A stretch of 32,000 nucleotides of DNA. It comes from Methylorubrum extorquens (GTDB lineage: Bacteria > Pseudomonadota > Alphaproteobacteria > Rhizobiales > Beijerinckiaceae). Position numbers and translations under genes: made by a program. The stretch lies in NCBI GenBank assembly GCA_900234795.1, contig LT962688.1, forward strand, positions 2,070,001 through 2,102,000, written 5' to 3'. The stretch's first letter is position 1. Every line of letters begins with the position of its first letter. The notes below the pieces were generated by a model. The model did no database searches. It saw only the letters and a program-made list of their open reading frames with translations, and had not been told where the DNA came from. Shown here in pieces: positions 2,978 to 25,219 of the stretch.

Positions 2978-3234
2978 TAGGCTCTTTCGCGGGATGGAGG
3001 CCGGCGCCGGGGGGACGCTCGGGGACGCGTATCCTGCCGTGACCGGCGGGACAGCATCGCTTTTCGGGCGGAAGCCTAGCCTTAAGCCGGCGGTCCCGGA
3101 AGGATTGGACGGGGGACGGCGCGCGTATCCGGCGGGCCTGTGACCGTTCCGCCACGTTGTTTCATCCCACGCCCACGCAACGTTGGGTTCCGGCGTCGTC
3201 TTCGTGCAACGTCGCCGCGCCTCTCGCGCGCGAC

Positions 3235-3267
3235 TTGCGCGCCCGTTGCGCGCCCCTTGCGCAACCT
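3235..3267 (+). promoter_or_regulatory. three direct TTGCGC(G/A)(C/A)CC repeats with 11-nt periodicity upstream of the MFS gene
   Basis: TTGCGCGCCCG / TTGCGCGCCCC / TTGCGCAACCT begin at 3235, 3246 and 3257. They end about 30 nt upstream of ATG 3296. The function is inferred only. Confidence 0.35.
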
Positions 3268-3295
3268 TCGGCGCGTCGCGCGCTTCTCCCTGCCG

Positions 3296-4778
3296 ATGCG
3301 TCCCGCCCAGATCGTCCCCCTCGTCGTCGCCACCGCCTTGTTCATGGAGAACACCGACTCGACGGTGATCGCCACGGCCCTGCCGGCGATCGCGGCGAGC
3401 CTCGGTGTCGATCCGATCGCCCTCAAGCTCGCGCTCACCGCCTATCTCGTGAGCCTGGCGATCTTCATCCCGGTCTCAGGCTGGGCCGCCGACCGCTACG
3501 GCGCCCGTAACGTCTTCCGCGCCGCCCTGTGCGTGTTCATGGCGGGTTCGCTCGCCTGCGCCGCCGCGAACTCGCTCACCGGTTTCGTCGCCGCCCGCTT
3601 CGTGCAGGGGATCGGCGGGGCGATGATGGTGCCGGTCGGCCGCCTCGTGATCCTGCGCTCGGTGCCGAAATCCGAACTCGTCGGGGCGCTCGCCTACCTC
3701 ACCATCCCGGCGCTGATCGGCCCGATCCTCGGGCCGCCGCTCGGCGGCTTCATCACCACCTATGCCGACTGGCGCTGGATCTTCTTCATCAACATCCCGA
3801 TCGGGCTCGCCGGCATCGTCCTCGCGACCCTGTATTTCGGCGATATCCGCGAGGAAACGCGCCCGCCGCTCGACGTGGCGGGCTTCCTGCTCTCGGGCGG
3901 CGGGCTCGCCCTGCTGATGCTCGGCTTTGCCGCAACCGGGCGCCACCTCCTGCCGGACGGCGTGTCCTGGGCCTGCATGGCCGGCGGAATCGTGCTCGTC
4001 GGGCTCTACCTGCGCCATGCTAAACGCACCGAGCATCCGCTCATCCGCCTCGACCTGCTCAAGCACGACACCTTCGGCGCGGCGGTGACGGGGGGAAGCC
4101 TGTTCCGCATCGGTACCGGCGCCATCCCCTTCCTGCTGCCGCTGATGCTGCAGATCGGCTTTGGGCTCGATCCGCTGCATTCCGGGCTCATCACCTTCGC
4201 CGCGGCGGCCGGCGCCCTTCTCATCAAGATCGTCGGCCCGCGCATCCTACGCGCCTACGGGTTCCGCCGGGTGATGGTGGTCAACGCGCTGGTCGCCTCC
4301 GCCTTTCTCGCCGCCAACGGGCTATTCACGGCGCAGACCCCGCACTGGATCATCGTCGGCGTGCTCCTGCTCGGCGGCTGCGTGCGCTCGCTGCAATTCA
4401 CGTGCGTCAACGCCATCGCCTATGCCGACCTCGAATCGCGGGAGATGAGCGCGGCCACGAGTCTGGCCAGCGTCGCGCAGCAAATTGTCCCTCAGCCTCG
4501 GTGTCTCCATCGGCGCCCTGGCGCTGGAGGGCGCTGCCGCCTGGCACGGCCATGCGGGGATCGAGGCGGGGGATTTCTCCCTCGCCTTCCTCGGGGTGGC
4601 CGTGGTCTCGGTGGGCTCGTTCTTCGTGTTCCGGCGGCTCGCGCCGGATGCGGGCGCGGAGGTGTCCGGTCAGCGACGGGTCGCCGAGGCCGTGCCGAGA
4701 CCCGCCGATGGTTCGCCCCAGAGCCTTGCCCCTGTTATGCCGCGGCCCGCGCCGGAGCCCGGCCGCCCGCCCGCTTGA
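3296..4778 (+). pseudogene. MFS transporter (DHA2 / EmrB-QacA-like, multi-TM) interrupted by a 1-nt insertion near 4484
   Basis: The start is MRPAQIVPLVVATALFMENTDSTVIATALPAIA at ATG 3296. MFS motifs are present (GWAADRYGARNVF, FVQGIGGAMMVP). The frame is lost after ...SLASVAQQ (CAA at 4481-4483). It continues in the +1 frame as LSLSLGVSIGALALEG... to the stop at 4776-4778 (track ORF 4485..4778). Total length is 1483 nt, i.e. 3n+1. This could be a sequencing error in the AAA run. Confidence 0.8.
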
Positions 4779-4789
4779 CGCTGCCGGAC

Positions 4790-5263
4790 TTAGGCCGCGC
4801 GGGCGCCTTGGCCGCCGGCTTGGCGGGGGGCTCGTGCGGGCGCCGAAGCCTCGCCGGAGCTGAAGACCCCGCGCCAGCTCCAGGCGCCGGGGCCGGTCAT
4901 CGCGTACATCAGGAAGGCGCCGGCCAGCCCGAGATCGGCGAGGAGGAAGCTGCGCTCGGTCACCGCGGCGGCCCCGGCATGGAGCCAGAACGGGTGCAGC
5001 AGGGCGGCCATGCCGGCCACGAAGCCGGCCATGGCCAGTCCGGTGATCCGCGGCATCACACCGAGGATGACCGCCAGCGGCCCGAACACCTGCACGATCA
5101 CCGCCGCCGTCGCGACGGCGTTGGGGGCGGGACAACCGGCGCCGGCCAGGGCCACCGCGAAGCCGGAGACGTTGAGTGCGCGCGCCACGCCGGTCGGCAG
5201 CAGGGCCGAGGCCATGAGGAGACGGGCGGCGAGAAGGACGCCGTTCTGGGCTGAACCGAACAC
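4790..5263 (-). CDS. DoxX family membrane protein, 157 aa (GTG start)
   Basis: A small protein with four hydrophobic segments and a DoxX-like sequence (LLAARLLMASALLPTGVARAL..., HPFWL). A GGAG lies about 10 nt upstream of GTG 5263. Confidence 0.75.
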   Translation of the reverse strand: MFGSAQNGVLLAARLLMASALLPTGVARALNVSGFAVALAGAGCPAPNAVATAAVIVQVFGPLAVILGVMPRITGLAMAGFVAGMAALLHPFWLHAGAAAVTERSFLLADLGLAGAFLMYAMTGPGAWSWRGVFSSGEASAPARAPRQAGGQGARAA

Positions 5264-5416
5264 GGGCCGAGGACTCCGGGAGAAAAGGAATACCGGGAAG
5301 CCTCGCGGGGCAGCGTGAATCGCCGGTTAAAGAGGCAGGGCGAAGCGATGGATGCCTGGGGATCGTCCAAGAACCATGCGCTCACCATGCACGCACCATG
5401 GACTTGCCCTTGCGTT

Positions 5417-5428
5417 GGGCTTAAGCCC
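5417..5428. promoter_or_regulatory. perfect 12-bp palindrome GGGCTTAAGCCC in the DoxX / carrier-protein divergent intergenic region
   Basis: Read directly. It lies 45 nt upstream of the carrier-protein start at 5473. An operator role is inference only. Confidence 0.25.
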
Positions 5429-5472
5429 GCAACCCGAGACCAGCACAGGACCGATCGAGGGGCATCCAAGCC

Positions 5473-5736
5473 GTGGTTCAGTCGATGGCCGACGTGCGGG
5501 AGGCGATCTTCGCCTTCATCGCGGCCCGCAACCCGGGCCTTCCCTCCGGCGCCGTCACCGGGGAGACGTCCCTCGTGACCAGCGACGCGCTCGATTCGAT
5601 CGGCATCCTCGACCTGATGATGCATCTCGGTGACCGCTTCGGCGTCGAGGTCGACGAGGACAGCTTCGACCTCGCGAACTTCGCCAGCGTCGACACGCTG
5701 GCCCATTTCATCGACGACCGGCGTTCCGACGTCTGA
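5473..5736 (+). CDS. acyl/peptidyl carrier protein (DltC-like), 87 aa
   Basis: Phosphopantetheine-attachment context ...LVTSDALDSIGILDLMMHL... on a four-helix sized acidic protein. GTG 5473 has GAGGGG about 12 nt upstream. The alternative start is ATG 5485. Confidence 0.8.
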   Translation: MVQSMADVREAIFAFIAARNPGLPSGAVTGETSLVTSDALDSIGILDLMMHLGDRFGVEVDEDSFDLANFASVDTLAHFIDDRRSDV

Positions 5737-5755
5737 TCCGCGCCTGACCCGTCCC

Positions 5756-7273
5756 ATGGCCCCGACGCTGCTGCACCACCTGCTCGAAGGAGCCGGCGCG
5801 GACGATTCCCCCGCGATCGTCGAGGGGGGCGAGACCCTCACCTATGGCGGCTTCCGGGCCCGCATCGCCGCTTTGGCGGGGCGCTTGGCACGTCTCGGCC
5901 TGCGGCCCGGCGACCGGGTCGCGATCCTGCTGCCGAAATCGATCTGCGAATGCGTCGCGATTTTTGCCGCCAGCGCGGCCGGCGGCGTATTCGTGCCGAT
6001 CCACCCGTCCTTGCGCCCGCGTCAGGTCCATCACATCGTCGCCGATAGCGGCGCGCGCGTGCTGCTGACCGATGCCACCCGCGCCGCCGGGCTCGAAGGC
6101 GCGCTCGATGACCTCGCGGACCTGCGCATCCTCGATGGGGAGAGGGGTGACGACGCCGCGGCCCTCATCCCCGGCGAGCCGGCGCCGGAGGGGCTGGCGG
6201 CGATCCTCTACACTTCGGGCTCGACCGGCCTGCCCAAGGGCGTGATGCTCTCCCACGCCAACCTGATCGCGGGCACCCGCATCGTGCGGACCTATCTCGG
6301 CATCAGCCCCGCGGACCGCCTCCTCTCGGTGCTGCCGTTCTCGTTCGATTACGGCCTCAACCAGCTCCTCACCACCGTAGAGCAGGGCGCGCGCATCGTG
6401 CTGCTGACGCCCCGGCTCGGCGACGACGTGGTGCGGGCGCTGGAGGCGCACCGCATCACGGTGCTGGCCGGCGTGCCGACGCTGTGGACGCTGCTGACAC
6501 GGGCCGCGCCGCATCTGGCGAAGGCGGACCTTTCGGCCCTGCGGGCGATCACCAATTCCGGCGGCAGCCTCGCCCTGCCGACGATCGAGCGCCTGCGCGC
6601 GCGGCTGCCGCATACGGCCGTCGTGCTGATGTACGGCCTGACGGAAGCCTTCCGCTCGACCTACCTGCCGCCGGAGGAGATCGACCGGCGGCCGGACTCG
6701 ATCGGCCGCGCCATCCCCGAGACCGAGATTTTTGCCGTCACCCTCGAAGGGCGCCGGGCGCGACCCGGCGAGCCCGGCATCCTGCATCACCGCGGCCCCA
6801 CCGTCTCGATGGGCTACTGGAAGCGGCCCGAGGACACCGCCCGCGTGCTGGTGCCCGATCCATTTCCGCCACCCGGTTCCGCGCCGGGCCTCGTCTGCCG
6901 CTCCGGCGACCTCGTGGTGGAGGATGCTGACGGCTTCTTCCGGTTCATCGGCCGCGAGGACACGATGATCAAGACGCAAGGGTTTCGCGTGAGCCCGACC
7001 GAGGTCGAGGCGGCGTTGATGGAGACGGGCGCCTTCCGCGCCGCCGCCGTGATCGGCCTGCCCGACCCGAGCCTCGGCCAGCGCATCCACGCCGTGACCG
7101 TCCCCGCCGAGGGTGCGCCGGGCACGGCGGACGTGCTGCAGCGCCTCCGCGCGGCGCTGGCACCCCATCTCGTGCCCCGCACCATCGAGGCGGTGGCCGC
7201 GCTGCCGACCACGCCCAACGGCAAGGTCGATTACAAGCGCCTCACCGCCGAGCGCGCGGCGGTGGAAATCTAG
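5756..7273 (+). CDS. AMP-dependent synthetase/ligase (adenylate-forming; acyl-CoA ligase-like), 505 aa
   Basis: Adenylation motifs are present: ILYTSGSTGLPKGV, YGLTEA, SGDLVVEDADGFFRFIGREDTMIKTQGFRVSPTEVE and PTTPNGKVDYKRL. ATG 5756 is 19 nt after the carrier-protein stop. The upstream part of track ORF 5630.. overlaps the carrier gene and is not coding. Confidence 0.9.
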   Translation: MAPTLLHHLLEGAGADDSPAIVEGGETLTYGGFRARIAALAGRLARLGLRPGDRVAILLPKSICECVAIFAASAAGGVFVPIHPSLRPRQVHHIVADSGARVLLTDATRAAGLEGALDDLADLRILDGERGDDAAALIPGEPAPEGLAAILYTSGSTGLPKGVMLSHANLIAGTRIVRTYLGISPADRLLSVLPFSFDYGLNQLLTTVEQGARIVLLTPRLGDDVVRALEAHRITVLAGVPTLWTLLTRAAPHLAKADLSALRAITNSGGSLALPTIERLRARLPHTAVVLMYGLTEAFRSTYLPPEEIDRRPDSIGRAIPETEIFAVTLEGRRARPGEPGILHHRGPTVSMGYWKRPEDTARVLVPDPFPPPGSAPGLVCRSGDLVVEDADGFFRFIGREDTMIKTQGFRVSPTEVEAALMETGAFRAAAVIGLPDPSLGQRIHAVTVPAEGAPGTADVLQRLRAALAPHLVPRTIEAVAALPTTPNGKVDYKRLTAERAAVEI

Positions 7274-7278
7274 GACCG

Positions 7279-8568
7279 ATGGCTGACGCTCCCGACCTCG
7301 CCGCCGCGCTGATCGCCGAAAACTTTTCCCGCGATGCAGGCGGCGTGCTGCGGGTCGGCGGCCTGCCGCTGACCGACCTCGCAAAGGAATTCGGCACGCC
7401 GCTCTTCGTCTACGACGCCGATACGATGCGCCGGACCTACCGGGCGCTGTGCGCGGCACTCGCCGGCTTCGCGGAGGTGGATTTTTCGGTCAAGGCGAAC
7501 CCGAACCCGGCGGTGATCCGCGTCTTCTCTCAGGAGGGTGCGGGGGCCGAGATCGCCTCCGGCGCCGAGTTCGACGCTGCGATCAGGGCGGGTGTTCCAC
7601 CGGAAAAGATCCTGTTCGCCGGCCCAGGCAAGGGTGCGGCCGACCTCGACCGGGTGATCGGCGGCGGCATCGGCGAAATCCATCTCGAAAACCGCGAGGA
7701 GATTGTTCGCGTCGCGGCGGCGGCCGAGCGTCACGGTGTGCGCGTGCGGGTGGCGCTGCGGATCAATCCCGGCGCGACCGCGCAAGGCGGGGCGATGCGG
7801 ATGGGCGGCAAGCCTTCGCCGTTCGGCTTCGACGAGGAGGACATCGAGGCCGCCATCGACACGGTGGAGGCCGCACCGCGCTTGCGCCTCGTCGGGCTCC
7901 ACCTGTTCGCCGGCACGCAAGGGCTGAAGGCGGACACCCTCCTCGGCCAGTGGACCTACGGGCTCGGACTTGCAGCGCGGATCGCGAACCGAATCGGGCG
8001 GCCGCTGGAGACGATCGATCTCGGCGGCGGCCTCGGCATCCCGTACTTCTCCGGCGACACCGCCCTCGATCTCAGCGCGATCCGGGCCGGGCTGCCCGAC
8101 CTGATCGCCACCCTGCGGGCGGACCCGCTGATGGCGCGCGCCCGCGTGGTGCTGGAGCCCGGCCGCTATCTCACCGGTCCGGCGGGCGTCTACGTGGCGC
8201 GGGTGCTGGCGGTGAAGGAATCGCGCGGCAGCCGCTTCGTCATCACCGATGGCGGCATGCACCATCATCTCGCCGCCAGCGGCAATCTCGGCCAGATCGT
8301 CAAGCGCGACTTTCCCCTCGCGGCCGTGACCGATGTGGGCGGTGAACGCGCGGCGACCGCGGTCGTCGGCCCGCTCTGCACGCCGCTGGACATGCTGGCC
8401 CGCGCCGCCGCCCTGCCGCCGCTGGCCGAGGGCGATTTCGTCGCGGTGCTGCAATCGGGGGCCTACGGGCTCACCGCGAGCCCGACGGGATTCCTGAGCC
8501 ACCCGACCCCGGCCGAAGTGCTGGTGGACGGGGGCGAGGCCAGGGAGATCCGGGCGCGCGGGCCTTGA
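7279..8568 (+). CDS. PLP-dependent decarboxylase, Orn/DAP/Arg decarboxylase fold (LysA-like), 429 aa
   Basis: Motifs: FSVKANPNPAV (PLP lysine), DLGGGLGIPY, LEPGRYL and GPLCTPLD. It starts 5 nt after the ligase stop. Confidence 0.9.
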   Translation: MADAPDLAAALIAENFSRDAGGVLRVGGLPLTDLAKEFGTPLFVYDADTMRRTYRALCAALAGFAEVDFSVKANPNPAVIRVFSQEGAGAEIASGAEFDAAIRAGVPPEKILFAGPGKGAADLDRVIGGGIGEIHLENREEIVRVAAAAERHGVRVRVALRINPGATAQGGAMRMGGKPSPFGFDEEDIEAAIDTVEAAPRLRLVGLHLFAGTQGLKADTLLGQWTYGLGLAARIANRIGRPLETIDLGGGLGIPYFSGDTALDLSAIRAGLPDLIATLRADPLMARARVVLEPGRYLTGPAGVYVARVLAVKESRGSRFVITDGGMHHHLAASGNLGQIVKRDFPLAAVTDVGGERAATAVVGPLCTPLDMLARAAALPPLAEGDFVAVLQSGAYGLTASPTGFLSHPTPAEVLVDGGEAREIRARGP

Positions 8569-8677
8569 TCCTGGCGCGTTCGCAAGACCGCGCGGCGCTT
8601 GCGGAAGCCCCCATCGCGCTCGCGTGACGGGGCCTCGGATGCCGTTCGGGATGTGGTGGCGCGGCTTTGCGTGTCGA

Positions 8678-10354
8678 TCAGGCGGCCCGCACCGTGGCGA
8701 GAAAGCGCTGAACCTCTGTCGAGAGGTTCTCGGACTGGCGTGACAGCTCCGCGGCGGCGCTCAGGACCTGGCTCGCGGCAGCCCCCGTCTCCTCGGCGGC
8801 GCCGGCCACGCTGGTGATGTTCGTCGTCACCTCCCCGGTGCCGATCGCGGCCTGGGCGACGTTGCGCACGATCTCCTGAGTCGCCGCCCCCTGCTGCTCC
8901 ACCGCGGCGGCGATGCTCGACGCCACGCCGTTGATCTCCCTGATGCGGCTGGCGATGCCGCCGATGGCTGCCACCGCCTGCCCGGTCGCCCCTTGGATCG
9001 TGCCGATCTGGGAGGCGATTTCATCGGTGGCGCGCGACGTCTGGTTGGCGAGCTCCTTCACCTCGGACGCGACGACGGCGAAGCCGCGGCCCGCCTCGCC
9101 GGCCCGCGCCGCCTCGATCGTCGCGTTCAGCGCCAGCAGGTTGGTCTGACCGGCGATCGTCGAGATCATCGCAACGACGTTGTTGATCTGAGCCGCGGCG
9201 TTCGACAGGTTCTGCACCAGCACCGCCGTATGGTCGGCCTCGCCGACCGCGCTCTCGGCCAAGTCCGCCGAACTCGCCACTTGGCGGCCGATCTCCTGCA
9301 CCGAGGCGCCGAGTTCCTCGGCCGCCGCGGCCACGGTCTGCACGTTCGCCGCCGCCTCCTCAGCCGCGGACGCCACGGTCAGGGATTGCGACGCCGTCTC
9401 GGTGGCCGTTCCCGACATGCTCCGGGCCGTCGCCTGCAACTGGCTGGCGGACGAGGTCACCATGCCGATGATCCCGCTGACCATCGTCTCGAAATGATCG
9501 GCCATCTGCCGCATGCCGGCCTTGCGCTGCTCCTCCGCCGAGGCGCGGGCGAGAGCGGTGTCCTCCTCCAGCTTGCGCGTATGGATCAGGTTCGTGCGGA
9601 ACACCTCGACGGTGGATGCCATCTCGCCGATCTCGTTCCGTCGGCCCTTGGACGGCACCTCCCGGTCGGTATCGCCGCTCGCGATGTCGCGCATCGCGCG
9701 CGTCATCTGCTCGATGGGCCGGGCCACGCCGAAGATAGAGAACGCCATGGCCAGGATCGTGACGACGAGGCCCGCGACCAGCATCGCGATGGCCGTATGG
9801 ATCGCCTGAGTCTGTTGGATCTGCGCGGCCTCTCCGGCGGCCTTGCTCACCTCGAAGTTCAGATCGACGAGCCGGGTCGCGGCGGCGGCGGCGGCGCGAT
9901 ACCGTGCATGGTTCTCCGTCCGGAACAGCACCAGCGCCTGATCGGCGTTTGTTTCGGCGATCCGCAGCAGGTTGGACCAGTCCTGCTTCAGCGCGCCGAC
10001 CGTCTGGATGAGGTCGTCGTAGGCGGCCTGCTCGGTGCTGCTGACGATGAGCACCTTGTACTTGTCGAGCTCCGCGGTGCGCGCCTCCATCAACTCATGC
10101 GCCAAGGCGAGGTCTTCTTTCCTGATCGCATCATTGGGTGCGGTCAGGAACCGCAGCTGGGCCGTTCTGACCTGCAGGATGAGCCTATTGATGCGACTCG
10201 CCTGATTGAGGGATGGAATTGCATTGGTGATGATGACGTTCGTGCTCTCGCCATTCGTTTGGAGGGCTTTGATCGAAATGATCCCCTGAATGGCGGATAC
10301 AATCGTCAGGATGGCAAACATGCCAACGAGTATTGCTTTGATGCTAATTCTCAT
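8678..10354 (-). CDS. methyl-accepting chemotaxis protein (N-terminal TM, four-helix-bundle type sensor, TM2, HAMP, MA signalling domain), 558 aa
   Basis: N-terminus [24 protein letters not shown], a second TM at [23 protein letters not shown], and the conserved signalling hairpin ...[37 protein letters not shown]... Confidence 0.9.
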
Positions 10355-10783
10355 TTTTCGCCCCAGTCTAATTTCTCCTCAAATCTATCATGAGTTTGAT
10401 AATGGAATCTAAATCCCAATGCGGCGCGCCCTGCTCGATTATTGCTGTTTCAATGAGATATAATGATTTTGACTGGGATTATTGGCGGACTTATTTCGTT
10501 TGTCTTGATCAGCGGTTGAGATTTCTGTCGATGTTCGTTCAAAGGTTGCATCAACTGATGAGGGGACAGGGACGGGCTGAAGCCGCCGGTCTTCGAGGCT
10601 CGGCTCCGGAGCGGCGACGACGGGAGCGCATTCCGACGAAGTGGTCACCGGCTCGTCGAAGGAATGCGCACCACAACAAGGACCGAGAGGCACCGACCCG
10701 ATGCCATCAGGCCGGGCGACGCCGGGTCCTCGCGACCGCACAGGGGCTGCTCCCGAAGGCCGGCCGGTGAGGCGTATGCCGGA

Positions 10784-10815
10784 AATGCAAAAAGGCCCGG
10801 CCTTGCGGCCGGGGC
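10784..10815 (-). terminator. rho-independent terminator downstream of the aldehyde dehydrogenase gene
   Basis: On the minus strand: GCCCCGGCC-GCAA-GGCCGGGC followed by CTTTTTGCATTT. It starts 29 nt after the stop at 10844. Confidence 0.7.
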
Positions 10816-10843
10816 TGAAGTCGGTCTCGAACTCTCGAAGGGC

Positions 10844-12367
<1,524 letters not shown>

Positions 12368-12554
12368 CGCGTTTCCTCCATTGCGCTTGTTCGTTGACCG
12401 CTCTTGCCGCCGGTCTTGCCGCGTCTTGGCGGGAGACAAGAGCAGTCGCCTCGTCCGATCAAGATGGACTTTTGTCCAACGCGGCTTCTGGCGGCCGCCG
12501 ACTTGACTGTCTTCGCAATTGTTTTTGCCTGCCGCCGGGGCGGCTGCGGCTCCA

Positions 12555-14381
12555 TCAGTTAGACCCTTTCAGGCCCCCTGGCGACCCCGCCCTTTGTCCA
12601 AGGAGCGGGGGCGTGGCGCCCTCGTCGGGCAATCGGGGCGCGTCGGTCTCGAGGCCGTTCCGGAGCAGGATCAGGCCAGTGACGCGGCCGGTCTCGTCGG
12701 CGGTGAAGCGGATCTGCGCATCGTTCGCGCGCAGGAAGAAGGCACGCTCGCCCTCGGGGAAGAGTTCGTTGCGCGGCTGCCGTGTGGTTTGCGCGAAGAT
12801 CCGCCCGTCCTCGACGGTCACTGCGATCTCGGAGCCCGGCCCCAGGGCGTAGCGGCCGGCGAGCGCCGCCAGGCCGGAGCGGTCGATGGCGACTTCGCGG
12901 TGCTCTTGAGGCGGCTCGGCGAGCACGGCCCGCGCCTCCTCGGCGGCGACGCGCGGCCCGGTCCGGTCGCGGCCGTCGCGATGCAGGATCAGGCCGGTGG
13001 GCGTGCCGTCGGGCTCCGTCTCGAAGGTCAGGCGCATGTCGGCGACGGGGCTGACGAAGGTGCGGTCGCTCTCGGGCACGAAGGGGAAGGCAGGCTCGCG
13101 CAGCCCCGGCCCTTCCGCCCGTGCCGTCAGGCCCCGGCCCTCGCGGGCGACGGTGAGGAAGGCGCGGGGGCCGAGGCGGTAGGTGCCGGGGTAGCGGTCG
13201 AGGATCACGTCCTCCAGCACGATCTCTTCGGGCGCCGCGTAATGGCCGAGATGGAGGGCGCCGAGGTCGCGGGCGATCTTCTGGGCCGGCGCGGTCTCGG
13301 TGTTCGAGAGCACGATCACCGTGAGCCGGTCGTCGGGATAGACGTCGTTGATCGAGAGGAAGCCGGGGATCGACCCGGCATGGCCGAAGACGCGGTGGCC
13401 GCTCGTCTTGTCGCCGGACTTGTCGTCGGAACGTTTCCCAAAGGCGCGGGAGACGAACCAGCCGAGGCCGTAGCCGGTGCCGCGATCGTCGAACATCGCC
13501 GCGCGCGAGGCTTCGGAGAGCAGGCGCGGGCCGGCGAGCGCCTCGTCCCAGGCGAGAAGGTCATCGACCGTGGAATAGAGCGCGCCGGCGGCGTAGGCCG
13601 AACTCGCCGCCATCGGCACCGCGTTGCGCCACTGCGCCCGCCCCCGCCGGTAGCCGGCGGCCCGCCGCGGCAGGATCACGGTGAGGTCGTCGTAGCCGGT
13701 CTCTTTCAGCCCCAGCGGCGCGAGGATGTTTTCGCGCAGGTAGCCTCCGTAGGAGAGACCGGAGGCGGCCTCGATCACCATCCCGAGCAGCACGTAATTG
13801 GTGTTGCTGTACTCGAAGCGTGTTCCCGGTGGGAACAGCAGCGGGTCGCCCGCCGTCAGCGCCACGATCTGCGCGGGCGTGTGATCGACCCGCGCGATCT
13901 GGTCGTAATAGTTCGGCAGCGCCGTGAAGTTGATGATGCCGGAGCGGTGCTGGAGCAGGTGGCGCAGGCTCACCCCCGCCCAGGCCTCCGGCACGGACGG
14001 AACCCAGCGGCGGACGGGGTCGTCGAGCCCGAGCCGGCCGGCCTCGGCGAGCTTCAGCACGGCCGCCGCGGTGAAGGCCTTGGTCAGCGAGCCGATGCGG
14101 AAATGGGTCTGCGGCGTGTTGGGGATCTCCCACTCGCGGTCGGCGAGGCCGTAGGCTTGGCGGAAGACCGGCCGCCCGTCCCGGGCCACGAGGATGACGC
14201 CGGAGAACAGGCCCGCCTCGACGTAAGGGGCGACGAGTCCCTGCGCCCGCGCCGTGTCACCGTCTTGCGCGCACGCCGGGCTCAGGGCCGCCAGGGCGAT
14301 CGCGACTGCGAGCCAGGCTGCGCGAACGGGCAGCGGGCGACGCGGGCTCACGGGGGCACGGCTCAAGAGGGCACGGCTCAC
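12555..14381 (-). CDS. serine hydrolase, beta-lactamase/PBP4-type esterase family, with two tandem C-terminal beta-sandwich-like repeats; secreted
   Basis: Motifs S-x-x-K (IGSLTKAF), Y-x-N (YSNTNY) and HAGSIPGF. Signal peptide [27 protein letters not shown] favour GTG 14381 as the start, with AAGGAG about 11 nt upstream. The longest frame extends to 14492. Confidence 0.8.
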
Positions 14382-14625
14382 GGGCTGCTGTTCTCCTTCA
14401 GGTCGGCGGTTTGACTGCAGACTTGGCAGCCAGCTTGGCCGCGAAGCAGAGGCCGGCTTTGCGGCTGCGGCGTGGCGAATGCGGTCGCGCACGCAACGGG
14501 CCGCTCCGGGATGCCATCACGCTTTCGCCGCGACCCGCTGCGACAAGCCCCCGGCGCGGGCGAAAGCCACAGCGCTTGCGGGGTTTTCCTCGGCGCCGCC
14601 GACACGACACCAGAGGCAGACGATC

Positions 14626-15225
14626 ATGACGATCCTATCGCGCAGCCTGTTGGCCGCTTCCGTCTCCGCCCTCCTCGCCGGAACCGCCCTGGTTCCGGGC
14701 ATCGCGCTCGCCCAGGCGCCTGCCCAAGTCCCTGCCCAAGCCCCTGCCCAGGCTACAGCGCCGGAGCCGGGCAAGGCGCTCGCGCTGACGCAAGGACAGA
14801 TCGACGGCCTCCTCGTCGCCCAGCCCGAACTCGCGAGGCTGCCCGGCGCCGCGCCCGACAAGCCCGATCCGAAGGCCGAGGCGCAGGCTCAAGCCGAAGC
14901 CGAGGCGATCGTGAAGCGGAACGGCTTTGCCAGCCTCGAAGAGTTTCAGGATGCCAGCGACACCGTCGATGCGGTGCTCGGCGGCATCGATCCCGAGACG
15001 AAGAGCTATGTCGGCGCAACGCCGTTGCTGAAGAAGCAACTGGCGGCTCTCCAGGCCGACAAGGCGATGCCCGCCAAGGAGAAGGCCGAAGCGGTCAAGG
15101 AGATCGAGGCGGCGCTCGCGGCGGGCGAGCCCGAGAAGCCGTCGCCGGCCAACATCACCCTCGTGACCCGGAACTACGCCCGGCTCAGCGCGGCGATGGC
15201 CGAAGGCGACGGGAAGCCGAAATAG
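14626..15225 (+). CDS. secreted protein of unknown function with APAQ repeats, 199 aa
   Basis: The signal peptide is MTILSRSLLAASVSALLAGTALVPGIALAQA. It is followed by PAQVPAQAPAQATAPEP and then a Lys/Glu/Ala-rich helical region. ATG 14626 is in the frame of track ORF 14254..15225. I recognise no family. Confidence 0.6.
   Translation: MTILSRSLLAASVSALLAGTALVPGIALAQAPAQVPAQAPAQATAPEPGKALALTQGQIDGLLVAQPELARLPGAAPDKPDPKAEAQAQAEAEAIVKRNGFASLEEFQDASDTVDAVLGGIDPETKSYVGATPLLKKQLAALQADKAMPAKEKAEAVKEIEAALAAGEPEKPSPANITLVTRNYARLSAAMAEGDGKPK
14713..14754 (+). repeat. short tandem repeat, 12-nt unit about 3.5 copies (GCNCCTGCCCAR), coding for (A/V)PAQ
   Basis: Read directly: caggcgcctgcccaagtccctgcccaagcccctgcccaggct. 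Confidence 0.7.
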
Positions 15226-15335
15226 GCGCCGCGTCGCAGACAACCCTCCTTCCCGTATGGGGGAGGGATAGCGCCGGCTTCCCCCGCGTTACGACACGCC
15301 AACCCCTTGTCCCGCTGCGCCCGGTTCCAAGCCGG

Positions 15336-16721
15336 ATGCTGCCCCTGAGAGCATCCGCGACCGTGATATCCTCCCCTCGGCCCACCCTCGGAAGCCCGGC
15401 CTCCGAGGCCTCGCCGGGCGGTTCGCCGGGAGCGGCCCAGAGCGTGCCCGTGGGCACGCCGGCGAGCCCGTCCCCTTCGGGTCCATCCCCCTCGAGTCCA
15501 TCACCCTGGGTCGGGCCGGGCTTTGCCGAGTTCGTCGGCATCGTCGCGCTGATGATGGCGGTCACCGCCATGTCGATCGACAACCTGTTGCCGGCCTTCC
15601 CGATGATCCAGGAGCGGTTCGGGGTTGCCGACCCCAACAGCCTGCAGCTCCTCGTCTACGTCTACATGATCGGCTTCGGGGTGGCGCAGATCGTCTACGG
15701 GCCGGTCTCGGACGCCCTCGGGCGGCGGCCGACGCTGCTGATCAGCCTCGGCATCTACACCGCGGGCTGCATCCTCTCGATGCTGGCGCCGAGCTACGAG
15801 TGGCTGCTCGCCTCCCGCGTCATCCAGGGCATGGGTGCGGCGGGCGGCCGGGTGCTCGCCACCGCGATCGTGCGCGACCGCTTCTCGGGGCGCGAGATGG
15901 CGAGCGTGATGTCGCTCATCATGATGGTGTTCCTGATCGTGCCGATGCTCGGGCCGGCGATCGGCGCGACCATGCTGCTGCTCGGCTCGTGGATCTGGGT
16001 GTTCGTGTCGATGCTGGCGCTGGGCGGCATCCTCACCCTGTGGTTCGCCCTGCGCATGCCCGAGACGCTGCATCCCGAGTACCGCCGCCCGCTCTCGCTG
16101 CGGGCCACGGGGCAGGCGCTCGCCACGGTGCTGCGCAACCGCGCGGCGATCGGCTACGCCACGGCGCTTGGCCTGCTGACGGGCTGCATCATGGGCTATG
16201 TCGGCTCGGCCCAGCAGGTGTTCGACACCGGGCTCTATCATCTCGGCGGGCTGTTCCCCGTCGCCTTCGGCGTGGTGGCCGGCGCCATGGGGGCGGCGAC
16301 GCTGATCAATTCCCGCGTCGTGCGCTGGCTCGGGATGCGGACCCTGTCGCATGCGGGCGTCACCGCCTTCACGGCGGTCGGCCTCGTGCAGGTCGGCATC
16401 GGCCTGCACTATCAGGGGCATCCGCCGCTGGTGCTGTTCCTATCGGTGCTGGCGCTCAACCAGTTCCTGATCAGCTTCGCCCTGCCGAACTTCAACGCGC
16501 TGGCGCTGCAGCCGCTCGGGGCGATCGCCGGCACGGCCTCGTCGTTCCTCGGCTTCTACACCACGATCCTGGGGGCCTTCTGCGGCTTCGTCATCGGGCA
16601 CGCCTTCGACGGCACGGTGATGCCGGTGGCCTATGGCTACGCCCTGCTCGGTGCGCTGGCCCTGCTCACCGTGGCCTGGACCGAGCGCGGGCGGCTCTAC
16701 CGGGCCGGCGTCTCCGGCTGA
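15336..16721 (+). CDS. Bcr/CflA-family MFS drug efflux transporter (12 TM); start uncertain
   Basis: The conserved core begins at FAEFVGIVALMMAVTAMSIDNLLPAFPMIQERFG, then ...YMIGFGVAQIVYGPVSDALGRRP... Only the last ~400 codons of track ORF 14472..16721 are transporter-like. In-frame starts upstream of TM1 are ATG 15336 and GTG 15444 or 15450. ATG 15551 would truncate TM1. Confidence 0.8.
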   Translation: MLPLRASATVISSPRPTLGSPASEASPGGSPGAAQSVPVGTPASPSPSGPSPSSPSPWVGPGFAEFVGIVALMMAVTAMSIDNLLPAFPMIQERFGVADPNSLQLLVYVYMIGFGVAQIVYGPVSDALGRRPTLLISLGIYTAGCILSMLAPSYEWLLASRVIQGMGAAGGRVLATAIVRDRFSGREMASVMSLIMMVFLIVPMLGPAIGATMLLLGSWIWVFVSMLALGGILTLWFALRMPETLHPEYRRPLSLRATGQALATVLRNRAAIGYATALGLLTGCIMGYVGSAQQVFDTGLYHLGGLFPVAFGVVAGAMGAATLINSRVVRWLGMRTLSHAGVTAFTAVGLVQVGIGLHYQGHPPLVLFLSVLALNQFLISFALPNFNALALQPLGAIAGTASSFLGFYTTILGAFCGFVIGHAFDGTVMPVAYGYALLGALALLTVAWTERGRLYRAGVSG

Positions 16722-18252: not shown

Positions 18253-19155
18253 TCAGGCCGCCTCGTCCTCGGGGATGACATCGACCTCGACGGTGAGCTT
18301 CTGCTCCCCGGCAGAGGCGACCATGCCATCGATGGGGGCGACGTCGGCGTAATCGCGTCCGCGCGCCACGACGATGTGGTCGTCCCGCACGACGCAGGCA
18401 TTGGTCGGGTCGAGGCCGATCCAGCCACCCTCCCCCGCGCCCGCCTCGGGTCCGCACCAGAGGGCGACCCAGGCGTGGCTGGCATCCGCCCCACGCAGGC
18501 GCGGACGCCCGGCCGGCGGCCGGGTGCGCAGGTAGCCGCTGACATAGGCCGCCGGCAGGCCGAGCCCGCGAAGGCCGGCGATCATGACATGGGTGAAGTC
18601 CTGGCAGACGCCCGCCCTCAAGGCGAAGGCTTCCGCCAGCGGCGTCGAGACGGTGGTCGCCTTGGCGTCGAAACGGAAGTCGTCGCGGATGCGCTGCATC
18701 AGCTCGACCGCGCCGCCATAGGCGCTGCGCCCCGGCGGGAAGCTGGCGCGGGCATAGTCCGTCACCGCCGGTTCGAGCGGCACCCGCTGGCTGCGGAACT
18801 GGAAATGCGCCGGCCCGTCCGGCCCGAGCGAGGGCAGCGCCAAGGCGGCCGCACGCACGGCCTCCCAGGACAGGCCCGACTCGGGCGGCGGCGGGGCCGG
18901 CCGCTCCACGGCGACGCGGGAGACCGCCTCGACCGTGAATTCGCGATGGGGCTCGTCGAGGGTCAGGGTCAGCGTGTCGAGGCCGAAGAAGTCGCGCCGC
19001 GCGAGACGGCTGGTCGGCGTGGGCGTGACGTGAAGCGCGCTCTCCAGCACCCGCTGCCCCTCGCCGTCGCGGGGGCGAAGGCGCAGGTTGCAGCGCGCGA
19101 AGCGGACGGCCCGCGCATAGCGGTAGGTCGTCAGGTGACGCAGGCTGTAGATCAA
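18253..19155 (-). CDS. transglutaminase-like family protein (Bact_transglu_N plus transglutaminase core), 300 aa, TTG start
   Basis: The start is (L/M)[16 protein letters not shown], the typical N-terminus of this family. Cys/His/Asp motifs are GVCQDFTHV, SHAWVALW and GLDPTN. TTG 19155-19153 overlaps the upstream TGA (TTGA). There is no ATG or GTG nearby in frame. Confidence 0.8.
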   Translation of the reverse strand: MIYSLRHLTTYRYARAVRFARCNLRLRPRDGEGQRVLESALHVTPTPTSRLARRDFFGLDTLTLTLDEPHREFTVEAVSRVAVERPAPPPPESGLSWEAVRAAALALPSLGPDGPAHFQFRSQRVPLEPAVTDYARASFPPGRSAYGGAVELMQRIRDDFRFDAKATTVSTPLAEAFALRAGVCQDFTHVMIAGLRGLGLPAAYVSGYLRTRPPAGRPRLRGADASHAWVALWCGPEAGAGEGGWIGLDPTNACVVRDDHIVVARGRDYADVAPIDGMVASAGEQKLTVEVDVIPEDEAA

Positions 19156-21692
19156 GCGAGACCCGTGAGCTTCTCGGGCCGCAGGGCATCGGGGCCGTTG
19201 GGGAAATAGCGGCCGGCGATCCCGTCGGCGAGGCCCTCCAGGTCCGCCTCGAACCGCTCCAGGGTCTCGGCGTCGAGCGCGGCGGCCTCCGCCGTCTGGA
19301 GCGTGCTGGCCAGCGCCAGCGCCCGACGGCGGTGCGGCTCGGGCAGTCCGTCGGCGGCGAGCGCCGGCAGGGCGTCGAGATGGGCGACCATCGCCTGGAG
19401 CTGGTAGGCGACGGAGCGGGGATTGTTGGGGTCGAGCACCGCCATGTCGCAGACCGCGTCGCGGCTCACGCCGACGAGGTAGCGCGCCCCGTAGGCGATC
19501 TGCGAATCGGCGAGCGAGAGCATCACGCCGAGATCCTCGGCGCCGGCGTCCGGGCTGCAGAAGCGGAGCGCGAAGCCGCAGGTGTTGATCGCCCGCTCGA
19601 CGCGCCGGCCCATATCGGCGAAGCGCCAGCCGGCGGCGTGGCCCATATTTTCGTGGAGCAGGCCGGTGAGCGCGGCGAGATGGCCGAGCGCCCGCTCGGC
19701 CTTGCCGAAGAGCTGCGCCTCGGTCGGCGCCCAGGCTTCGGTATAGGCCAGGGTGTCGCGCAAATCGGCCAGAGCCCGCCAGGATTCGGCCGGCAGCCGC
19801 TCGCGCAGGGAGGCGGCGATGCGCCGGGCCTCCAGCACATGGGCGAGGCCCGAGCCGTGAAGCGTCTTGCCGGAGAGCGCCTCCCCGGCCACGGCCGCGG
19901 GCGGGAGATCGACCGCGCTCACCGCGCCCCAATCCTTGAGCAGCGCGCGGATGGCGAGCGCCGTCGGCGCACCCTCCTCGCCGGAGGCGTCGGCGGCGAT
20001 CGCCTCGCTGAACACGCCGAGATGGGCCTGGACGAGGCGGATCACCGCTTCCGCGCGCTCAAGGTAGCGCCCGAACCAGAACAGGTTGTCGGCGGCCCGT
20101 GACGGCAGATGGCCGGCGATGCGGCGGATGCGCGGCGCGCTCGTGTGCACCAGGCCCGGGGTGTCGACGGGCGTGTCGGACAGGACCCAGACGTCGGCGG
20201 AGCGGATGCCGGCGCGCATCTCGCTGGGGTCGCCGCCCTCGTGCTCGGCGACGCGGCAGAAGGCGCTCGGCAGCACGCGCCATCCGTCGGGCGTGGCGGC
20301 GGCGAAGACGCGCATGACGAAGGGGCGTGCGACGAGCCGCCCGTCCTGCCACGCGGGCATGGTCGAGAGCGGCGCGGGCTCCTGCGCCACCCAATCGAAC
20401 GGCCGCTCGCGCAGGGACGCGACGGCGCGGGCGCGGGCGGCGTCGAGCGCCGGGCCGGCCAGCATCGCGTCGCGCTCCGGGCCGCGCACCGGGGTCGCGG
20501 CGGCGCGCAGCGTCAGGCGGTCGAGGTTGGCCAGCGCGTGGTCGAGGCCGTCCGGATCGCCGCACCACCATGTGCGGGGCCCCGTGAGCCGCAATTCCTC
20601 GCCGGTGAGCCGCCGGGCGATGGCCGGCAGGTAGGGCCCGAGCGCGGCCGATTCGAGCACGCCGGAGCCCGGCATGTTGCCGACCACGGCACCGCCCCGG
20701 CGCAGCACCTGGAGGATGCCGGGCACGCCGAGGCGCGAATCCGAGCGCAGCTCCATCGGGTCGAGATAGTCGGCATCGATCCGGCGCCAGACCGCGTCGG
20801 TGCGCTTGAGCCCGGCGATGGTCCGGACATGCAGGAGCCCGTCCCGCACCACGAGGTCGTCGCCCTCCACCAGCAGGAAGCCGAGATAGCGGGCGAGCGC
20901 GGCCTGCTCGACATAGGTGCTGCTGTAGGGGCCCGAAGTGAGAAGGCAGATGCGCGGGTCGCTGCGGGCGCAGGACGCGGCCAATCCGGCGCGGAACGCC
21001 TGGAAGAAGCCGGGCAGGCGCTCGACATGGAGGTCGGCGAACAGGTCCGGGAAGGCGCGGGCGAGCACCATCCGGTTCTCCAGCGCATAGCCGAGGCCCG
21101 AGGGCGCTTGGGTGCGGTCGGCCAGAACCTGCCAGCGCCCGTCGGGGCCGCGGCCGACATCGGCGGCGTAGATCGGCAGCCAGCGCCCGCCGGGCGGGGC
21201 GATGCCGTGGACGGGCCGAAGATATTCGGGATGCCCGGCGACCACGCCCGCCGGCAGAAACCCGTCCGCGACGAGCCGGCCCGCGCCGTAGATGTCGGCG
21301 ACGATGCGCTCCATCAGGCCGGCGCGCTGGACGATCCCGGCCGACAGCTCCGCCCAGTCGGCGGCGTCGATGACGAGCGGCAACGAGCCCAGCGGCCAGG
21401 GATGCTCGCGCCCGTCGCCGTAGACCCGGTAGGAGATGCCCGCGTCGCGGATATGCCGCTCGGCGGAGAGGAAACGGGCGGCGACCTCGCGGTCGTCGAG
21501 CCGGGCGAGACGCTCCAGAAAGCGCGGCCAGCCGCCGCGCAGGTTGCCTCCCGCATCGACCAGCTCGTCGGCGAGGCCGGGGCGGGGCGCGTAGCCCTCC
21601 GTCCAGCGGCGCATGCGCGCGGCCGGGTCGTCGGCCGCCCAGGCGGAGGCGTCGGGCGGTGGCCCGTCCGCGAGGGCGGCCGATGCGCTCAT
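19152..21692 (-). CDS. fusion protein: circularly permuted type-2 ATP-grasp domain (about nt 20109-21692) plus alpha-E domain (about nt 19155-20108), 846 aa
   Basis: The N-terminal half resembles CP ATP-grasp (DUF404/DUF407-type) proteins (...[16 protein letters not shown]..., ...[27 protein letters not shown]...). The alpha-E hallmark [20 protein letters not shown] starts at residue ~529. ATG 21692 overlaps the upstream stop (ATGA). The first 240 codons of track ORF ..22412 overlap the upstream gene and are not coding. Confidence 0.85.
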
Positions 21693-24600: not shown

Positions 24601-24973
24601 CGTGCGCGTCGTCGAGAACGAGGTAGGGTGCCAGCGCGACCTTCAGATCGGGCTCGTACTCGAAGGGATGGCGCTCGGCGTAGGGCTCGACGAAGAAGTC
24701 GAACGGGTTGATGACCGCGAGGTCGGCGGTGAGATCGACCTCGATGCGCAGTTCCGTGGTCTTTTCCGGGAAGACGAGCCGGGCGAGCCAGTTGCCGGCC
24801 GGATCCTGCTGCCAGTTGATGAAGTGGTTTTCCGGGCTGACCTTCAGCGCGTAGGCCGGCACCCGGGTTCGCGCATGCGGCGCCGGGCGGAGCCGGATCG
24901 TCTGCGGTCCCAGCGCGATCGGCCGGTCGTAGCGGTAATGCGTGACGTGGTGCAGGGCGGCTTGGATCGACAC
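21689..24973 (-). CDS. large transglutaminase-like / DUF2126 (predicted GS-like amidoligase) protein, about 1094 aa
   Basis: N-terminus ...[32 protein letters not shown]. Transglutaminase core motifs are [52 protein letters not shown] long C-terminal region is typical of DUF2126 proteins. I prefer GTG 24973, with GGAG 5 nt upstream. The longest frame starts at ATG 25039. Confidence 0.85.
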
Positions 24974-25219
24974 GGAGGCTCCGAAGGCTTCTGCGATTGT
25001 CTCGAACGAGCGGGCGGTGCGCTCGGCCGCCGGTTGCATGCCTTACTACAGTTCGGGCGGCCGGAAGGAGCAATCGGAATAGCAAGAACCGTGCAGTGGC
25101 CGTTGCCCGGCATGGAACTTCGTCCGGCTCACACCCTTGGTTGATGCGGAAGGCCGCGGGAGCGAGGCTGCGGCCCGGTTCTTGTAGGGATCCCGCGACG
25201 GCCGAAGCGGGGGCCTCCC

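Follow-up and report, generated by a model that had tools for sequence, protein, structure and literature searches.

Which chemistry is carried out by three adjacent genes for a stand-alone carrier protein, an adenylate-forming ligase and a pyridoxal 5'-phosphate (PLP) dependent decarboxylase is the question raised by a locus of Methylorubrum extorquens, contained in the 32-kb stretch of DNA that was analysed and is hereafter called the window. The three genes (the trio) are all on the plus strand, with gaps of 19 nt (5737-5755) and 5 nt (7274-7278), and form a single operon. NCBIfam models TIGR03098 and TIGR03099, the best models for the ligase and the decarboxylase, are of the 'hypoth_equivalog' type and are labelled 'exosortase A system-associated', with no chemistry assigned. 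We consider it probable that the trio loads an acidic amino acid on the carrier and decarboxylates it there, which would give an omega-aminoacyl thioester; relatives point to a surface polysaccharide as acceptor.

A set of 85 related loci was collected by tblastn of plasmids and by a single scan of 185,579 species genomes. Open reading frames (ORFs) in these loci were called and clustered with a crude custom caller, by which a decarboxylase was called in 72 loci. In the window itself the 19 larger ORFs were scanned against Pfam.

Ligase, decarboxylase and carrier protein

The ligase consists of PF00501 (E 7e-82) plus PF13193, and the motifs YTSGSTGLPKG, YGLTE, SGD, GREDTMIKTQGFRV and PNGKVD can be read in its translation. 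TIGR03098 (ligase_PEP_1) is its best NCBIfam model by far, with 532.1 bits against 272 bits for the runner-up, and the curated cut-off of 592.35 is not reached. Among the single-domain PDB matches VinN (3wvn) stands out with 215 bits, followed by HitB, CmiS6, SlgN1 and IdnL1, other beta-amino-acid adenylation enzymes, at 159-180 bits. Direct BLASTP comparison with VinN, the sequence of which was obtained via a PDB search with an Actinomadura homologue, gives 34% identity at E 2e-68.

VinN binds 3-methylaspartate or aspartate as a beta-amino acid. In its pocket D230 binds the amino group, the bulky F231 and S299 line one wall, and a beta13-beta14 loop, one residue shorter than usual, bears K330 and R331, which bind the alpha-carboxylate of the substrate; the GrsA counterparts of D230, F231 and S299 are D235, Ala and Ala (PMC11253843). 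D197 (in FSFDYG), Y198, S268 and R300 of the window ligase align with VinN D230, F231, S299 and R331, four of the five signature residues, and the alignment is free of gaps from TNSGG to PDSIG, which spans the beta13-beta14 loop. Since this pocket combines an amino-group Asp with an extra-carboxylate Arg, the substrate would be an acidic amino acid activated at its side-chain carboxyl. The ligase is, by its residues, VinN-type and is predicted to load such an amino acid on the carrier through that carboxyl. An early Stachelhaus code derived by means of an LgrA alignment was ambiguous near position 299/301 and was superseded by the VinN alignment.

The segment MYGLTEAFR(S/A)T is nearly invariant in 70 aligned ligases from related loci, and VinN-like actinomycete ligases have MYGLTECKR instead. 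The related-locus ligases are further split by the residue at the VinN F231 position, with Tyr in FDYG ligases, including that of the window, and Ala in FDAG ligases, which occur in many loci with exosortase-type neighbours; the two groups may differ in substrate.

The decarboxylase consists of PF02784 (E 7e-37) plus PF00278, with Lys72 in VKANPN. It scores 406.3 bits with TIGR03099 (dCO2ase_PEP1) and 266.2 bits with the lysA model TIGR01048, and reaches neither of the respective cut-offs of 478.45 and 297.9. A PDB search identified BtrK (7ru7, 293.6 bits, E 3.3e-86), entitled 'L-glutamyl-[BtrI acyl-carrier protein] decarboxylase', as the closest solved structure, whereas the best diaminopimelate (DAP) decarboxylase in the PDB scores 185.2 bits (E 2.6e-53). 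In a six-sequence alignment the PLP lysine and the His, GGGxGxPY, EPGR and Cys positions are invariant, and LysA shares these as well as the fold. Three other segments separate LysA from both the window enzyme and BtrK. DGGMHHHLAAS, GPLCTPLD and SGAYGLTASP..FLSHP of the window enzyme correspond to DGGMHHHA-AS, GPLCTPED and SGAYGLSFSP..FLGHP in BtrK, and to DAGMNDLIRPS, GPICETGD and AGAYG..S.HYNMRP in DAP decarboxylases. Hence NDLIRP and CE(S/T)GD of DAP decarboxylases are replaced by HHHLAA and CTPLD, including an Arg and a Glu that we take to contact the distal end of diaminopimelate.

Given these BtrK-type motifs and the TIGR01048 score below its cut-off, identity as LysA was rejected and, as judged by its motifs, the decarboxylase is not a LysA paralogue in function. 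It is nearer to BtrK than to free-substrate decarboxylases, and carrier and loading ligase are co-encoded, as is characteristic of the BtrK/VinO/FlvO/CtaF type. It is thus described here as BtrK-type and predicted to remove the alpha-carboxyl from a carrier-bound amino acid. The protein is 100% identical to a Methylorubrum extorquens protein and is found at 62-100% identity across Methylorubrum and Methylobacterium; some public annotations of Methylobacterium orthologues already bear the BtrK name.

The carrier matches PF00550 with 24.2 bits, above the gathering score of 20.8, and has Ser42 in D-A-L-D-S-I-G, a D-S-(L/I) motif at the start of helix II. Its top NCBIfam matches are specialised stand-alone acyl carrier proteins (ACPs), every one under its cut-off, and a hidden Markov model (HMM) built from related-locus carriers, the window carrier itself included, matches it with E 2e-26. 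The original prediction had called the serine context of the carrier DltC-like, which turned out not to be specific, since DltC models TIGR01688 and NF003464 gave no match to it at E <= 1e-3; solely the Shinella orthologue matches the DltC models, weakly, at 24-25 bits and under cut-off. The same prediction had identified the three proteins correctly, as the Pfam matches confirm, together with the DSIG serine, the ANL motifs and the VKANPN lysine read in the translations. Compared with two orthologous loci of the Methylorubrum group, dN/dS is 0.09-0.14 for the carrier gene and 0.09-0.25 across all three genes, which indicates purifying selection and therefore a cassette that is maintained by selection.

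For a neighbour-joining tree, BtrK was added to the decarboxylases of 73 loci, and DAP decarboxylases served as the outgroup. A carrier-associated group, which includes BtrK with actinomycete macrolactam-type enzymes, is placed apart from the DAP decarboxylases. Within this group, clade A contains the window decarboxylase and those of other Methylobacteriaceae, Shinella and Rhizobium plasmids, and metagenome-assembled genomes of Betaproteobacteria, Terriglobales, Deltaproteobacteria and Planctomycetes. Its sister, clade B, includes a Sinorhizobium meliloti protein annotated as TIGR03099. The original prediction had pointed to the exosortase-associated pair: TIGR03098 and TIGR03099 are indeed the best models, but both scores remain below the curated cut-offs and the decarboxylase falls in the sister clade, therefore the window trio is a relative rather than a member of that pair. 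In line with an earlier reading of the sequence, no exosortase A (XrtA/EpsH), PEP-CTERM or polysaccharide gene was found among the ORFs scanned in the window.

Related loci and a candidate transferase

The ligase gene lies immediately upstream of the decarboxylase gene, on the same strand, in 50 of the 72 loci, and is present anywhere in the locus in 59, across many phyla. A carrier gene is found at a distance of 6 kb or less in 48 of 73 loci (the window counted). The window shares this adjacency, the gene order and the MYGLTEAFR motif with the TIGR03098/TIGR03099 pair. At least one polysaccharide-type family occurs in 40 of the 72 loci. Hydrolases TIGR03100 and TIGR03101, a relative of the XrtA-type amidotransferase, EpsB TIGR03013 and the TIGR03097 O-ligase, the usual neighbours of the pair, are found in relatives only and not among the scanned ORFs of the window; the related loci also carry a Wzx-type flippase and a pair of DegT aminotransferase and FemAB/BspF-like GNAT. 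Examples with annotation are Shinella pShin-01, pSymB of S. meliloti and two further plasmids, one from Rhizobium and one, with GDP-sugar genes, from Paracoccus. The closest relatives of the window decarboxylase (49-58% identity) are all located in polysaccharide loci.

In nine of these related loci, and in M. gnaphalii as well, the gene immediately upstream of the trio encodes a protein of about 290 aa. Members of this family occur in L001 (9277-10119), L002 (12471-13355), L086 (5293-6180), L017, L019, L031, L055, L065 and L077, loci from Alphaproteobacteria, Betaproteobacteria and Actinomycetota; in most of them the gene directly precedes the trio or the ligase, with one gene in between in L065. 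The family has no Pfam or NCBIfam match. An AlphaFold model (mean predicted local distance difference test score 83.7) matches Eis/2i00-type tandem-GNAT acyltransferases at E 1e-9 with a TM-score of about 0.5. The tandem-GNAT protein, which occurs in M. gnaphalii, Shinella, Rhizobium and Sinorhizobium, is the most evident candidate transferase for the loaded carrier, and its link between the trio and polysaccharide loci appears to be undescribed. M. adhaesivum has a GNAT of the CelD/BcsL type near the trio. Searches with the M. gnaphalii tandem-GNAT and the M. adhaesivum protein gave 16 and 150 matches, respectively, none named Methylorubrum; both searches were word-indexed and could miss distant homologues. 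In addition, neither the Shinella nor the S. meliloti 'hypothetical' gene that precedes the trio gave a tblastn match in the window.

Several related loci have a different layout. A compact variant is found in Streptomyces and Nocardiopsis (L005, 11992-16902, and also L071 and L073), with in L005 the order decarboxylase, holo-ACP synthase, hotdog protein, VinN-like ligase, carrier, ectoine synthase and EctA-like acetyltransferase; this arrangement points to a small-molecule pathway, as yet unexplored, that builds on the same donor module. In Paracoccus ferrooxidans pFER4 (L004, 1982-11230) ligase, carrier and decarboxylase stand at the end of a run of sugar genes, consisting of GDP-mannose dehydratase, GDP-fucose synthase, DegT aminotransferase, lipase, GT61 and hexapeptide acetyltransferase, and the whole resembles a locus for an N-acylated 6-deoxy-amino sugar. 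A gene of Methylobacterium sp. 77 (L088, 9322-10035, minus strand) that converges on the decarboxylase gene scores as cysteate racemase CuyB (252 bits against a cut-off of 190 bits); cysteate is an analogue of aspartate. An Asp/Glu racemase as a clue to the substrate was rejected, since this neighbour scores as CuyB, the one in Shinella is without a model match and the association is not recurrent.

Predicted pathway and alternatives

From homology, active-site residues, gene linkage and selection we infer the following route, in which all catalytic steps, as well as substrate, acceptor and end product, are predictions. A phosphopantetheinyl transferase encoded elsewhere would convert the carrier to its holo form at Ser42. 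The VinN-type ligase would adenylate an acidic amino acid at the side-chain carboxyl and transfer it to the carrier thiol; the amino group would be held by Asp197 and the free alpha-carboxylate by Arg300. Our preferred substrate is L-aspartate, with glutamate or a near analogue as the alternative. The BtrK-type decarboxylase would then remove the alpha-carboxyl on the carrier, yielding beta-alanyl-S-carrier, or gamma-aminobutyryl (GABA)-S-carrier in the case of glutamate. An acyltransferase from outside the window would finally move the aminoacyl group to an acceptor which, to judge from relatives, is most likely an amino sugar or another residue of a surface polysaccharide. Thioesters of GABA are prone to cyclisation, and the butirosin and vicenistatin pathways add a protecting group, for which no enzyme is encoded in the window. 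Aspartate is favoured for this reason and since every VinN-type enzyme listed in a review takes beta-amino acids (PMC11253843). The general mechanism of on-carrier decarboxylation is moderately well supported, the assignment of aspartate as substrate is weak.

The mechanism is of a known kind, with precedents in the Btr, Vin and Flv systems. The macrolactam starter-unit modules VinN/VinL/VinO (vicenistatin) and FlvN/FlvL/FlvO (fluvirucin) have the same three parts as the window operon, that is an ANL-type adenylation enzyme, a stand-alone carrier and a fold-type III PLP decarboxylase. Actinomycete decarboxylases of the Vin/Flv type share the carrier-associated clade with that of the window, VinO and FlvO themselves being outside the comparison. 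Unlike the vicenistatin system, the window has no VinM-type protecting ligase, VinK-type acyltransferase or polyketide synthase (PKS) among its scanned ORFs and its host is an alphaproteobacterium; unlike both macrolactam systems, its decarboxylase has its closest relatives in polysaccharide loci. BtrI/BtrJ/BtrK, from the butirosin side-chain pathway of Bacillus circulans, is related through the BtrK motifs, whereas its ligase, BtrJ, is of the ATP-grasp and not of the ANL type. The Btr pathway moreover uses glutamate and has a second glutamylation, a hydroxylation and an aminoglycoside transfer, none of which is encoded in the window. The window carrier has the length of BtrI, 87 aa (PMC7857480). 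In these systems Glu or Asp is ligated via the side-chain carboxyl by BtrJ, CtaD or FlvN to the carriers BtrI, CtaE or FlvL, and BtrK, CtaF or FlvO then remove the alpha-carboxyl on the carrier to give GABA or beta-alanine (PMC11350588, PMC7857480). Since the window operon holds homologues of this set in its adenylation-type form, Asp (or Glu) would be converted to beta-alanyl- (or GABA-) S-carrier.

A stand-alone ANL ligase co-transcribed with a dedicated ACP has been described in S. meliloti 1021, where SMb20650 acylates the ACP SMb20651 in E. coli and shows no fatty acyl-CoA synthetase activity (PMC7232532). For the ligase-carrier pair of the window this is a precedent in logic only. As a direct precedent it was not established: the pSymB TIGR03098/TIGR03099 trio of other S. 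meliloti strains is found in 27 high-identity Sinorhizobium plasmid records, and pSymB of strain 1021 is not among them.

Several points weigh against the proposed route. VinN K330 is replaced by Phe299 in the ligase, so that the two carboxylate sites are not the same. The decarboxylase with the closest solved structure, BtrK, uses glutamate and not aspartate, and the sequence does not settle the substrate. The polysaccharide destination is based on relatives with decarboxylases that are at most 58% identical to that of the window. A transferase that uses the product, a glycosyltransferase and an exporter are absent among the scanned ORFs of the window, and the word-indexed searches found neither type of GNAT in Methylorubrum. 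The searchable literature holds no biochemical data on this set of proteins or on any TIGR03098/TIGR03099 member, nor a functional study of clade A or one that links exosortase/PEP-CTERM with decarboxylase, ligase and ACP.

The original prediction had the decarboxylase act on a free amino or diamino acid while ligase and carrier activate a separate acid, the two being joined into a small amide, lipid or polymer modification. The decarboxylase does belong to a clade related to DAP decarboxylase, the members of which use varied, distally conjugated substrates (PMC7857480), it reaches 266 bits on the lysA model, and TIGR03098 is named an acyl-CoA ligase. Yet the lysA score is under cut-off and BtrK-type motifs replace those of DAP decarboxylases, the ligase retains the amino-group Asp and the carboxylate Arg of VinN, and no condensing enzyme was found among the scanned ORFs; moreover, the adjacency of ligase and decarboxylase across many phyla fits consecutive steps on one tethered substrate. 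On-carrier decarboxylation is thus better supported, and we regard two separate substrates as improbable. About equally improbable is that the same chemistry feeds, instead of a polysaccharide, a system of DUF2126 amidoligase, ATP-grasp plus alpha-E protein and transglutaminase. The operon for that system is the ancestral neighbour of the trio in Methylobacteriaceae: the trio lies just downstream of it, on the same strand, in five loci (Methylobacterium sp. 77, M. adhaesivum, M. segetis, Methylorubrum sp. POS3 and Leaf118), and Leaf91 appears alike on ORF sizes only. The operon is also present in the window (about 19152-25042, minus strand; transglutaminase-DUF2126 amidoligase and circularly permuted ATP-grasp plus alpha-E protein), and the word-indexed searches detected no GNAT partner in Methylorubrum. 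In the window, however, it is about 10 kb away from the trio and divergent after an inversion, and still the trio is under purifying selection; it adjoins the trio in none of the annotated loci inspected outside Methylobacteriaceae, and the M. gnaphalii trio is located elsewhere, with the tandem-GNAT gene.

It seems very improbable that the trio provides an assembly pathway encoded elsewhere, for a polyketide or a nonribosomal peptide, with a beta-amino-acid starter or building block, in the manner of VinL/N/O and FlvL/N/O. Ligase and decarboxylase are homologous to the macrolactam set, and additional ligase and acyltransferase genes are adjacent in two actinomycete loci (L072 and L021). Against this, the scanned ORFs of the window include no PKS, nonribosomal peptide synthetase, VinK-type acyltransferase or VinM-type second ligase, and polysaccharide loci are where the decarboxylase relatives at 49-58% identity reside. 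Just as little credence is given to a stranded remnant, deprived of its transferase partner and without function in Methylorubrum. Such a loss would agree with the tandem-GNAT partner of the other genera, for which no counterpart was found in the window, but the reading frames and catalytic residues are all intact, dN/dS is low for each gene and the trio is kept across Methylorubrum and Methylobacterium. As an operon the trio is indeed the self-contained module that had been proposed; as a pathway it is not, the transferase that adjoins it in relatives being missing from the window.

Operon layout, rearranged surroundings and meaning

The lengths, strand and spacing of the three genes as originally predicted were confirmed (Table 1). 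The carrier ORF has a GTG start, with GAGGGG 9 nt upstream. For the ligase the sole alternative start to the ATG at 5756 is GTG 5630, which leads to a 107-nt overlap with the carrier gene; the TIGR03098 alignment begins at ligase residue 6. A promoter and terminator scan of 5150-8800 yielded no promoter-like site at all, with no sigma-70 consensus in the region upstream of the carrier gene, and no intrinsic terminator-like site in the region downstream of the decarboxylase gene. Its single terminator-like site lies within the ligase gene, no more than expected by chance. An Rfam scan of the whole window, including 5264-5472, gave no match.

Table 1. Features of the trio and its bordering intergenic regions in the window.
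Feature	Positions	Strand	Basis
Putative promoter/intergenic region between divergent DoxX gene and carrier gene	5264..5472	+	promoter inferred from gene layout
Stand-alone carrier protein, 87 aa, predicted phosphopantetheine site Ser42 in DALDSIG	5473..5736	+	PF00550
Adenylate-forming ligase, 505 aa, VinN-type	5756..7273	+	PF00501, PF13193, TIGR03098 relative, VinN match
Fold-type III PLP decarboxylase, 429 aa, BtrK-type	7279..8568	+	PF02784, PF00278, BtrK match, motifs, tree
Intergenic region between convergent decarboxylase and chemoreceptor genes; operon end	8569..8677	.	sequence reading

The trio is flanked by genes for DoxX (4790-5263, minus strand) and a methyl-accepting chemotaxis protein (MCP; 8678-10354, minus strand), as had been read from the sequence. 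In Methylorubrum sp. POS3 and Methylobacterium sp. Leaf118 (L091 and L092) the order is transglutaminase operon, trio, aldehyde dehydrogenase, beta-lactamase, hypothetical, major facilitator superfamily (MFS) transporter, DoxX, second MFS transporter and DUF3313, hence DoxX is about 6 kb from the trio, beyond the aldehyde dehydrogenase and beta-lactamase genes. Compared with these loci, a block of about 10 kb in the window (within about 5473-16700), from the trio to the first MFS gene, is inverted, and the MCP gene is present only in the window. DoxX and the chemoreceptor were therefore rejected as partners: both are neighbours through rearrangement, by the inversion and the added MCP gene, and as flanks they are uninformative on function.

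Some further features of the region were observed. A stretch of low G+C content (0.57 at 10001-11000) lies between the MCP and aldehyde dehydrogenase genes. An MFS transporter gene (3296-4775, plus strand) is split between two frames at about 4482-4486 when compared with its intact 499-aa POS3 orthologue, the identity being 93% for residues 1-397 (frame 2) and 80% for residues 396-499 (frame 3); either the gene is a true pseudogene or the sequence contains an error. The ORF of 704 aa at 3140-5254 is a high-G+C artefact.

For the wider family we tentatively propose, as a joint claim that is rather less likely to hold in full than the route of the trio itself, that the ligase/decarboxylase/carrier set makes a cationic omega-aminoacyl donor, beta-alanyl or GABA, with which tandem-GNAT, CelD/BcsL-type GNAT or alpha/beta-hydrolase partners may aminoacylate surface polysaccharides, and that in Methylorubrum, where the donor module persists with no partner recognised, this role may fall to an unlinked, unrecognised transferase or to the DUF2126 system. 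If true, glycans would be aminoacylated by means of a carrier protein, in a logic comparable to the D-alanylation of teichoic acid. An amino-terminated acyl decoration of bacterial exopolysaccharides is predicted; it would alter polymer charge and could thereby influence flocculation, adhesion and colonisation of plant surfaces. For annotation, the lesson is that the decarboxylase gene of the window is not a second lysA. For two 'hypothetical equivalog' families in hundreds of genomes, and for their sister clade, the link with Btr, Vin and Flv provides a concrete reaction that can be tested by mass spectrometry; the main value of the analysis is this testable chemical assignment for widespread, uncharacterised genes.

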